From Burkholderiales bacterium (GTDB taxonomy: Bacteria; Pseudomonadota; Gammaproteobacteria; Burkholderiales; Nitrosomonadaceae), in assembly GCA_024235795.1 (NCBI GenBank), contig JACKLR010000002.1, forward strand, positions 887,225-951,224: a stretch of 64,000 bases of DNA, given 5' to 3'. The notes under the pieces are model-generated. The model did no database searches and was not told the DNA's origin. It saw only the letters and a program-made list of their open reading frames with translations. Both the position numbers and the translations under genes were made by a program. Below are positions 13,573 through 14,646 of this stretch, one piece after another. The stretch's first letter is position 1, and the number at the start of each line of letters is the position of its first letter.

Positions 13573-14646
13573 ATGAAAAAGTCGTTAACGGCTGAAGCGA
13601 AACGTCAAATTGGTCATGCACGAAATGCGCGACCTGGACTTGAAGCAACCAATCCCGTCAATCAAGGGAGCTATGGTTTCGTCGATAACCGTGCAGAAAC
13701 GCAGGTGCAGCGCCGCTTGATGGCCGACATTAATGACAGCCCGAAAGTCATGGTGCAGCGTAAGGAAGCCGAATCATTACATGCCAGCCCGCGCATGGCT
13801 GCACAAAGAATATGGTACGGTTCGATAAGCAAATCTGCAGCCCAGTTACAAAGCGCACCCGAGGATGAATTACTGCAGGGGCGGTTTGAGACAGCGCAAC
13901 GGATGGAAGAAGAGGAGCCTTTGCAGGGAAAATTTGAAGCCCTTCAGCGCATGGCGGAAGAAGAACCCGTGCAGGGCAAGTTCGCAACCCTGCCGATACA
14001 GTTGCAAGAATCAACAGCTGACAAGCCAAACAATACCGGTTTGCCGGATAATCTGAAAGCAGGTATCGAAACGCTTTCCGGCATTTCCATGGACAGTGTC
14101 AAAGTCCACTACAACTCTGAAAAACCGGCGCAACTCAATGCCCTGGCTTACGCCCAGGGTACGGATATTCATGTGGCGCCCGGGCAGGAAAAACACTTGC
14201 CGCATGAAGCCTGGCACGTGGTGCAGCAGGCGCAGGGGCGTGTGCAGCCGACGATGCAAATGAAAGAAGGCGTGCCGATTAATGACGATCAAAGCCTTGA
14301 GCATGAGGCTGATGTAATGGGTGAAAAAGCATTAAATACAAGCCGGCTTGTATCACCTGTTCAGGCAAAATGCGATCAATGCCAGGAAGGCGAACAACTC
14401 GATATTCATCGCTCTGTGGTACAAGAAAAAGTCAAAATGTCATACCGGCCTATTTCAACGGTGATTCAATCGCAGGTTATACAGCGCGCGTGTTATTTTT
14501 TTAAGAATGCCGATTGTACGGGGAAAAAGGTTTACGCAACGAGCAAGCACAATTTCAAAGATTATAAGACTTACAATTGTTCTGGAGATAGAGAGAGCGA
14601 TGATTGTGTGGATAACGACGGCAAAGGACATTGTAGTTGTCCTTAA
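13573..14646 (+). CDS. DUF4157 (eCIS core) protein with 52-aa six-cysteine C-terminal peptide
   Basis: Intact DUF4157 (HEAWH), a CDQC motif, then QR followed by ACYFFKNADC...GHCSCP. Confidence 0.8.
   Translation: MKKSLTAEAKRQIGHARNARPGLEATNPVNQGSYGFVDNRAETQVQRRLMADINDSPKVMVQRKEAESLHASPRMAAQRIWYGSISKSAAQLQSAPEDELLQGRFETAQRMEEEEPLQGKFEALQRMAEEEPVQGKFATLPIQLQESTADKPNNTGLPDNLKAGIETLSGISMDSVKVHYNSEKPAQLNALAYAQGTDIHVAPGQEKHLPHEAWHVVQQAQGRVQPTMQMKEGVPINDDQSLEHEADVMGEKALNTSRLVSPVQAKCDQCQEGEQLDIHRSVVQEKVKMSYRPISTVIQSQVIQRACYFFKNADCTGKKVYATSKHNFKDYKTYNCSGDRESDDCVDNDGKGHCSCP
13673..14263 (+). repeat. ~590-bp near-identical direct repeat (copy 2)
   Basis: Matches 9777-10367. Confidence 0.92.

Follow-up and report, generated by a model that had tools for sequence, protein, structure and literature searches.

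The cargo gene and its locus

The stretch of DNA considered here (the window, 64,000 nucleotides) covers positions 887,225 to 951,224 of contig JACKLR010000002.1 from a Burkholderiales bacterium of the family Nitrosomonadaceae, a Nitrosomonas whose 3.97-Mb genome holds eight matches to the Pfam family PF13699 (eCIS_core/DUF4157). The subject of this work is one gene of the window, at 13573..14646, taken from the open reading frame list, the sequence and its PF13699 match, which encodes a 357-aa predicted cargo protein of an extracellular contractile injection system (eCIS), and in particular the last 52 residues of that protein, a module with six cysteines. As judged from its conservation, this C-terminal module is real, is maintained by selection and forms a fold unit that had not been described before.

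All the features of the gene lie on the forward strand. A Shine-Dalgarno sequence, GGAGGG, stands 4 nt ahead of the ATG (13563-13568), and a promoter and terminator scan around 13573-14646 gave no signal exceeding shuffles. The N-terminal region (residues 1-152; 13573..14028), delimited by alignment with the other cargo genes of the locus, contains the QR-rich repeats QRRLMADINDSPK, VQRKEAESLHASPRMAAQR and LQGRFETAQRMEEEEPLQGKFEALQRM. It is presumed to be a system-specific loading sequence, on account of the AlgoCIS work (bioRxiv 10.64898/2026.05.27.728243), according to which eCIS cargo needs its N-terminal region for loading but can be loaded without DUF4157 and without the C-terminal domain, the latter being the variable effector part. 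Inspection of the 357-aa sequence revealed no Sec signal, the N-terminus, MKKSLTAEAKRQIGHARNARPG, being hydrophilic. The DUF4157/eCIS_core block, defined by Pfam, alignment and codon analysis, follows (residues 153-254; 14029..14334), and within it lie the Pfam PF13699 core (residues 157-222; 14041-14238) and the sequence HEAWH (residues 211-215; 14203-14217). The PF13699 match, which is the sole Pfam domain of the protein and includes the HExxH, scores 33.7 bits against a cut-off of 22. Next comes a fast-evolving linker (residues 255-305; 14335..14487), recognised from the family alignment and from pN, the proportion of nonsynonymous sites that differ; in it sits a CxxC (residues 267-270; 14371-14382) and a K-C-x-x-C-x-E element that is invariant in the alignment of the six-Cys family. 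The six-Cys module itself (residues 306-357; 14488..14643), defined by translation and alignment, closes the protein and is followed by the stop codon (14644-14646). An element of the form QR/K-C-x-x-C-E-E recurs beside DUF4157 domains in unrelated DUF4157 proteins of the same genome (window 14371-14382; G000:C2:1207-2499; C2:3-1208), reading IQRMCEECEEE where it is N-terminal to DUF4157 and VQRSCFDGNCEDCDEG where it is C-terminal to it.

The window begins with the end of an eCIS operon (1..2413, +), where Pfam matches place the C-terminal part of the CIS tape-measure protein at 1-1047 (+) and an AAA+ ATPase at 959-2413 (+). The rest of the system, comprising Pvc16_N, the sheath, two gp19 tubes, CIS_tube, a VgrG-like spike and gp25, is found just upstream of the window (G000:C2, 867-888 kb), and by its gene content the eCIS at this locus is complete. 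The six-Cys cargo gene lies ~13 kb 3' of the tape-measure and AAA genes, as the eighth gene past the AAA ATPase, inside the span of about ten genes expected of a DUF4157 cargo. An earlier interpretation made from the letters of the window (hereafter the sequence-only reading) had taken the gene for an eCIS payload; the PF13699 domain, the position downstream of CIS_TMP and AAA and the structural genes upstream agree with this assignment to the predicted payload type.

Alignment shows that the N-terminal leader of the six-Cys cargo is common to the cargo-type genes at 5742-7025, 9671..11179 (+) and 12326..13420 (+). The last of these has no DUF4157 match (Pfam, alignment), and the gene at 9671..11179 is a paralogue in which the same N-terminal region and DUF4157 trunk are followed by a Peptidase_M91 C-terminal domain (Pfam, alignment). 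In fact, a 550-bp block of the six-Cys gene (13681..14230, +), spanning most of the N-terminal region and DUF4157, is ~100% identical to 9785-10334 of this paralogue, and the identity collapses past ~14231, at the border of the C-terminal module swap. In the Nitrosomonas metagenome-assembled genome (MAG) L001, the six-Cys cargo is likewise 84% identical to the neighbour upstream of it over residues 1-233 and unrelated to it beyond. Since paralogues in two genomes keep the trunk and differ in their C-terminal domain, this comparison indicates that the module sits in a swappable effector position.

No cognate immunity gene was found directly downstream of the cargo gene, and the other loci have unrelated, differing downstream neighbours. 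Here the neighbour is a convergent open reading frame for a 382-aa multi-pass membrane protein (14691-15839, -), whose label as similar to a pentameric ligand-gated ion channel was accompanied by no Pfam match at E<=0.01. This gene was considered as an immunity or target partner and rejected, because besides the present locus the close relative G041 is the sole case in which it adjoins six-Cys cargo. In that relative (L015, G041:C33:1490-3057) the convergent neighbour is 84% identical to the gene at 14691-15839 and stands beside a partial copy of the module, located in the last ~120 bases at the contig end. Off the eCIS locus, the genome of the window has a DUF4157 match split over two frames of 89 and 64 aa (G000:C3:135003-135340, -), probably a frameshifted gene, and, at the start of contig C2 and far from the eCIS, tandem DUF4157 genes with open frames of 402 and 431 aa (G000:C2:3-2499), which have in common a Cys-rich C-terminal domain of ~200 aa (…CCVNLKFDF…HELWH…).

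The six-cysteine module and its family

The 357-aa protein ends in VIQRACYFFKNADCTGKKVYATSKHNFKDYKTYNCSGDRESDDCVDNDGKGHCSCP followed by the stop (translation of 13573..14646), so that 14488-14646 does encode, as the sequence-only reading had it, a 52-aa six-Cys C-terminus plus stop with both a terminal CxC and a C-x6-GHC segment. The cysteines occupy module positions 2, 10, 31, 40, 49 and 51 (protein residues 307, 315, 336, 345, 354 and 356), and together with two histidines they give the pattern C-x7-C-x10-H-x9-C-x8-C-x7-H-C-x-C. Six cysteines in 52 residues, as against two in the preceding 305, correspond to a binomial P of ~1e-5 at 1% Cys. The net charge is 0, composed of +4 in residues 1-30 and -4 in residues 31-52 (0 to +1 in the homologues), seven aromatic residues fall within the first 30 positions, and Leu, Ile and Met are all absent. 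Given that none of these three is available for a hydrophobic core, the composition predicts that the module must be held together by cross-links. The QR ahead of the module is not kept in cyanobacterial copies, where QLAS takes its place.

Neither Pfam nor NCBIfam gave a match at E<=10 to the C-terminal pieces of 52 and 96 aa, a phmmer search of the module against the PDB returned a single chance match (the G-CSF receptor, E=0.44), and a profile search of the module family against all PDB sequences returned 0 matches at E<=10. The K-H-N...N...H arrangement was also considered as an HNH nuclease, a candidate that was rejected for want of a Pfam HNH match and of a helix-prone segment after the Asn. 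AlphaFold2 gave a mean predicted local distance difference test score (pLDDT) of 42 for the module with 9 aligned sequences, an unusable model, and of 38 for the full protein with 13 sequences, in which even DUF4157 was unmodelled; such poor models are to be expected from so shallow an alignment.

The sequence-only reading had seen in the module a defensin- or knottin-like peptide with a gamma-core, which in its full form means an antimicrobial peptide akin to host-defence peptides and acting by membrane damage. The likeness to the fungal proteins AFP, PAF and NFAP, to CSalpha-beta (cysteine-stabilised alpha-beta) defensins and to knottins is indeed apparent in the size of ~50 residues, near that of AFP/PAF, in the six cysteines with a terminal CxC, in a composition of beta type with much Lys, Asp, Asn, Tyr and Gly, such as small disulfide antimicrobial proteins have, and in formal gamma-core patterns (GXC-X3-9-C or its levomeric forms), both levomeric formulas being present (C2-x7-C10-x-G12 and C40-x6-G47-x-C49). 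However, among 100,000 shuffles of the same 52 residues some gamma-core formula occurred in 44%, the particular isoform in 20% and CxC in 46%, and because of this frequency the gamma-core and CxC motifs are uninformative alone; it is conservation that sets the module above chance. The kinship itself finds no backing in the other comparisons: the module is neutral and not cationic, has no CxxxC and hence no CSalpha-beta pattern (CxxxC...CxC), comes without signal peptide or secretory precursor, is fused to a 305-aa bacterial cargo trunk, was not found as a free-standing small protein and has no meaningful match in the Pfam, NCBIfam and PDB searches above. Its Cys spacing of 7, 20, 8, 8, 1 differs from the 6, 13, 7, 6, 10 of PAF, and the abcabc framework of the latter, C-x6-C-x13-C-x7-C-x6-C-x10-C, does not describe it. 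Knottins, for their part, are inhibitor cystine knots with the connectivity I-IV, II-V, III-VI. A possible kinship with Aspergillus AFP, suggested by the C-x8-C-x-C ending, was rejected, as hhalign against an AFP/PAF alignment (PDB-confirmed PAF and AfpB, plus an AFP sequence) gave a probability of 0.6% over 10 columns. Kinship with defensins, knottins or fungal AFPs is therefore very doubtful, and a convergent small disulfide fold is possible.

When the 52 residues were compared by HMMER with the full set of 1.84 billion representative proteins, one true cluster was returned, P0002 (78% identity, same architecture), together with P0003, a 552-aa repeat protein in which residues 14-38 were matched six times at 33% identity and which was judged a repeat-inflated chance match. 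A word-indexed search starting from P0002 yielded 12 clusters, every one of them of DUF4157 proteins that are 279-349 aa long and have the module at their end or close to it, and scans of species-representative genomes and of metagenomes added two Nitrosomonas/proteobacterial MAGs, two cyanobacterial MAGs (a Cyanobium sp. and a Cyanobacteriota bin) as well as two metagenome contigs. In total, the family amounts to ~15 homologues or clusters from Nitrosomonas and picocyanobacteria (Cyanobium-type MAGs), all fused to the same DUF4157 subtype, and the search found no free-standing small protein bearing the module. In every complete homologue the six cysteines, H21, H48 and 20 more positions are invariant, within a family that is shallow (identity of at least 71%).

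The association with eCIS genes recurs in the relatives. Among 190 Nitrosomonadaceae species genomes the module was present as five complete copies and one partial copy, and all five complete copies belong to CIS_TMP-positive genomes, 8-14 kb downstream of CIS_TMP and on the same strand. The linkage of six-Cys cargo to eCIS is repeated in L001, L006, G048, G049 and G059. In the Nitrosomonas MAG L001 the gene order is tape measure, AAA, an 873-aa protein, a methyltransferase, a DUF4157 protein and the six-Cys cargo; in the Cyanobium MAG L006 it is fibre chaperone, a 1301-aa protein, CIS_TMP, a 247-aa protein and the six-Cys cargo, and the same strand carries tube genes 20 kb upstream; and in L002 and L007 a PAAR gene lies just upstream of the cargo gene. 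Since 40 of the 190 family genomes (38 of the 120 other genomes of the genus) have CIS tape-measure genes, eCIS are common in Nitrosomonas, and the literature naming both eCIS and Nitrosomonas yielded mentions in passing only.

In the P0002-type copies of Nitrosomonas and in those of Cyanobium the N-terminal region differs from that of the window copy, and DUF4157 and the six-Cys module are kept. The cyanobacterial copies have an unrelated N-terminal region, a near-same DUF4157 and a 45-residue tail after C-Y-C-P; as this tail is conserved in Cyanobium-type copies, the module need not be the extreme C-terminus. In L006 (10157-10291) and L008 the tail is Lys/Glu/Pro-rich, EPKKEESKSEKPKGPPSAFDDPST...EYPPRR. 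The cyanobacterial copy P0014 (L002 1770-2609; L007 1891-2937) is without 18 DUF4157 residues, including HEAWH, its six-Cys module and 45-aa tail being intact, and in comparison with L006 its ratio of nonsynonymous to synonymous substitution rates (dN/dS) is raised, at 0.27-0.63. Directly 3' of the Cyanobium cargo gene stands a fragment of a Y2_Tnp transposase (L006 10991-11797, -), which is consistent with mobility of the cargo region.

Codon alignments show that the synonymous sites of the window copy are saturated with respect to all the others, the proportion of synonymous differences (pS) being 0.8-0.9. At the same time, pN is 0.12-0.19 in the module as against 0.38-0.64 in the linker, which evolves three to four times faster. 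Where dS could be estimated, among the Nitrosomonas copies, dN/dS of the module is 0.14-0.17, and DUF4157, at 0.02-0.07, is the most constrained part of the protein. The module is, by these measures, under strong purifying selection, and the low pN despite saturated pS argues that it is a translated, selected domain, set off from DUF4157 by a flexible spacer. In the Cyanobium contig (65% GC), the GC content at third codon positions (GC3) is 0.53 in the module and 0.80 in DUF4157, a gap that hints at different histories of tip and trunk.

These data bear directly on the explanation of the module as a non-functional remnant of a truncated or frameshifted larger C-terminal domain. That it is very short for an effector domain, that its GC and GC3 fall below those of the rest of the gene and that one relative, G041, has a frameshift inside it would all suit a remnant. 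Nevertheless, length, Cys spacing and end point are alike in ~15 homologues of two phyla, the purifying selection persists where synonymous sites are saturated, and neither a larger homologue nor an alternative reading frame for the module was detected. The sequence-only reading had named unconserved Cys spacing in homologues as the mark of a random truncation remnant, and the spacing is strictly kept in the homologues, so that conservation and selection, taken together, leave the remnant explanation effectively refuted. As for the partial copy of G041, a 1-nt frameshift has to be introduced to read ...HCNCP*, and at positions invariant elsewhere it has H21 substituted by T, N30 by S, G45 by S and G47 by V; it would be either a decaying copy or an error of a MAG that is 67% complete.

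Proposed cross-links, zinc and place of action

The explanation that we favour, at somewhat better than an even chance, is that the module is a mini-domain in the C-terminal effector position of an eCIS cargo, cross-linked, non-enzymatic and of a binding type, binding being preferred to catalysis because the module is too small for most catalysis. According to this proposal, the protein would be synthesised in the cytoplasm, the lack of a Sec signal being evident from the sequence; the N-terminal region and the AAA+ ATPase of the locus would, by analogy with AlgoCIS, bring the unfolded chain into the tube lumen; and contraction would lead to expulsion, after which the mini-domain would fold and act by binding a target. 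Three disulfides would form only in an oxidising compartment, for instance outside the cell or in the periplasm if the target is Gram-negative, and such oxidation-dependent folding in the target would make an immunity gene unnecessary.

Concerning the chemistry of the cross-links, three disulfides are tentatively preferred, at a little less than an even chance, because the number of cysteines is even, the loops span 7-20 residues, the module contains no CxxC knuckle and Thr stands at the H21 position in the G041 copy. Two zinc sites built from the six Cys and two His are rather unlikely, the remaining share being left to neither arrangement. With zinc, the module would be a Zn-stabilised mini-domain with two Zn(II) sites, working as a protein- or nucleic-acid-binding finger in the reducing cytosol of the target. 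The eight invariant potential ligands (C2, C10, H21, C31, C40, H48, C49 and C51) and the C-terminal HCxC cluster speak for it, as do the synthesis of the protein in the cytoplasm and the classical injection of eCIS cargo into the cytosol; in addition, the partner DUF4157 would likewise have to acquire Zn after delivery. Nevertheless, apart from the HCxC cluster the module has neither a CxxC nor a CxxH knuckle, no zinc-finger match was obtained in Pfam or the PDB even at E<=10, and the G041 copy, though frameshifted, has lost H21. Ligand spacings of 7-20 residues are, moreover, atypical for zinc fingers.

Several points weigh against the cross-linked, target-binding mini-domain. The AlphaFold2 models allow neither fold nor Cys pairing to be read, and in a family whose members are at least 71% identical the invariance of Cys and His discriminates little. 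Delivery by eCIS is usually taken to end in the cytosol, whose reducing conditions would keep disulfides from forming, and the eight invariant ligands numerically fit two Zn sites. Most membrane-active disulfide peptides are cationic, which the module is not, and the G041 copy without H21 is frameshifted and perhaps a pseudogene. Finally, DUF4157 can itself be the toxic part, as in VgrG2b of a type VI secretion system (T6SS) (PMC6899460), and the module could be an accessory.

This last point leads to an unlikely alternative, in which the DUF4157 zinc-metallopeptidase is the real effector and the small, aromatic-rich module serves to bind, for instance, the substrate or a ligand of cell-wall or carbohydrate nature, thereby positioning or regulating the peptidase in the manner of the LysM domains of other DUF4157 cargo. 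DUF4157 is more constrained than the module, both travel together across phyla, the DUF4157-type peptidase VgrG2b is a periplasmic toxin that needs its catalytic site (PMC6899460), LysM-bearing DUF4157 cargo exist (PMC11297309), and the seven aromatics among the first 30 residues would suit a binding surface of that kind. However, the same trunk, with ~100% DNA identity, is joined to another C-terminal domain in the M91 paralogue, so that the trunk looks generic and the C-terminus specific; the L002/L007 copy has lost its HExxH stretch and still has the six-Cys module intact; and none of the carbohydrate-binding families in Pfam and NCBIfam was matched. In addition, AlgoCIS Cgo1 is cited in PMC11297309 as being toxic independently of its DUF4157 metalloprotease motif.

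If the target-binding mini-domain with disulfides is pursued to its furthest consequence, it would stand for a new class of injection payload, a speculative proposal to which we give a low probability: a disulfide mini-toxin of ~50 residues, unfolded and inert in the producer, carried by DUF4157 through the tube, activated by oxidation in the target periplasm or outside, maybe cleaved at the linker by the DUF4157 metallopeptidase, and exchanged horizontally among ammonia oxidisers and picocyanobacteria. Such a mini-toxin, being inert and unfolded in the reducing cytoplasm of the producer, would require no immunity protein.

Relation to known systems and meaning

In its overall plan the protein resembles the DUF4157 members of the eCIS-associated toxins (EATs), such as Cgo1 and Cgo2 of AlgoCIS from Algoriphagus machipongonensis and EAT14 from Chitinophaga rupis, which are also composed of an N-terminal loading region, DUF4157 with HExxH and a variable C-terminal domain. 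As here, their genes close the eCIS operon on its 3' side, paralogous cargo of one system have the N-terminal region in common, and an adjacent immunity gene is often lacking. The location of DUF4157 N-terminal to toxin domains in eCIS cargo has been described (PMC8213781), and about half of the predicted EATs are DUF4157 proteins (1130), 983 of which are without another annotated domain (PMC11297309). The difference lies in the C-terminal domain, which in EATs measures hundreds of residues and is mostly an enzyme (transglutaminases, nucleases, deaminases, peptidases, ADP-ribosyltransferases), whereas here it is a 52-aa Cys6His2 module without family match. The validated eCIS effectors of the cited literature are predicted enzymes of ordinary size, and a literature search for Cys-rich mini-effectors in eCIS found no report. 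The suggestion in the sequence-only reading of a class apart from the usual enzyme payloads is, in this respect, in keeping with what the comparison indicates.

A similar relation exists with the polymorphic toxins (Rhs, CDI, LXG and the DUF4157-trafficked polymorphic toxins; bioRxiv 10.1101/2021.10.19.465003), in which the trunk that serves trafficking is conserved and the C-terminal module fused to it diverges abruptly. The near-identical trunk DNA of neighbouring paralogues, a substrate for recombination, adds to this likeness. Unlike those toxins, the present cargo has no cognate downstream immunity gene and its module is far smaller than the typical toxin tip. With regard to the proposed mechanism, a precedent is provided by the Serratia T6SS effectors Ssp2 and Ssp4, which require DsbA of the target cell (PMC5792426); they are synthesised in a cytoplasm that is reducing and gain activity only once their disulfides have formed in the target. 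Nevertheless, Ssp2 and Ssp4 are larger enzymes delivered by a T6SS, whereas delivery here would be by an eCIS and the disulfide dependence is purely inferred.

Taken as a whole, the architecture is that of a known DUF4157 cargo type, and its tip is, from the searches made, a new domain family, confined to ~15 sequence clusters from Nitrosomonas and picocyanobacteria. It is thus predicted that the cargo position of an eCIS can hold a cross-linked mini-domain of 52 residues, which bears on what passes through the tube and refolds, on why many cargo genes come without immunity genes and on whether DUF4157 serves as carrier, chaperone or maturation protease. A cargo tip so small and strongly conserved, and predicted to fold by itself, would also be a handy probe of loading and refolding in engineered injection systems. 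In the context of the organisms that carry it, the module may point to an unexplored antagonism, or to a defence against grazing, in nitrifiers and picocyanobacteria.

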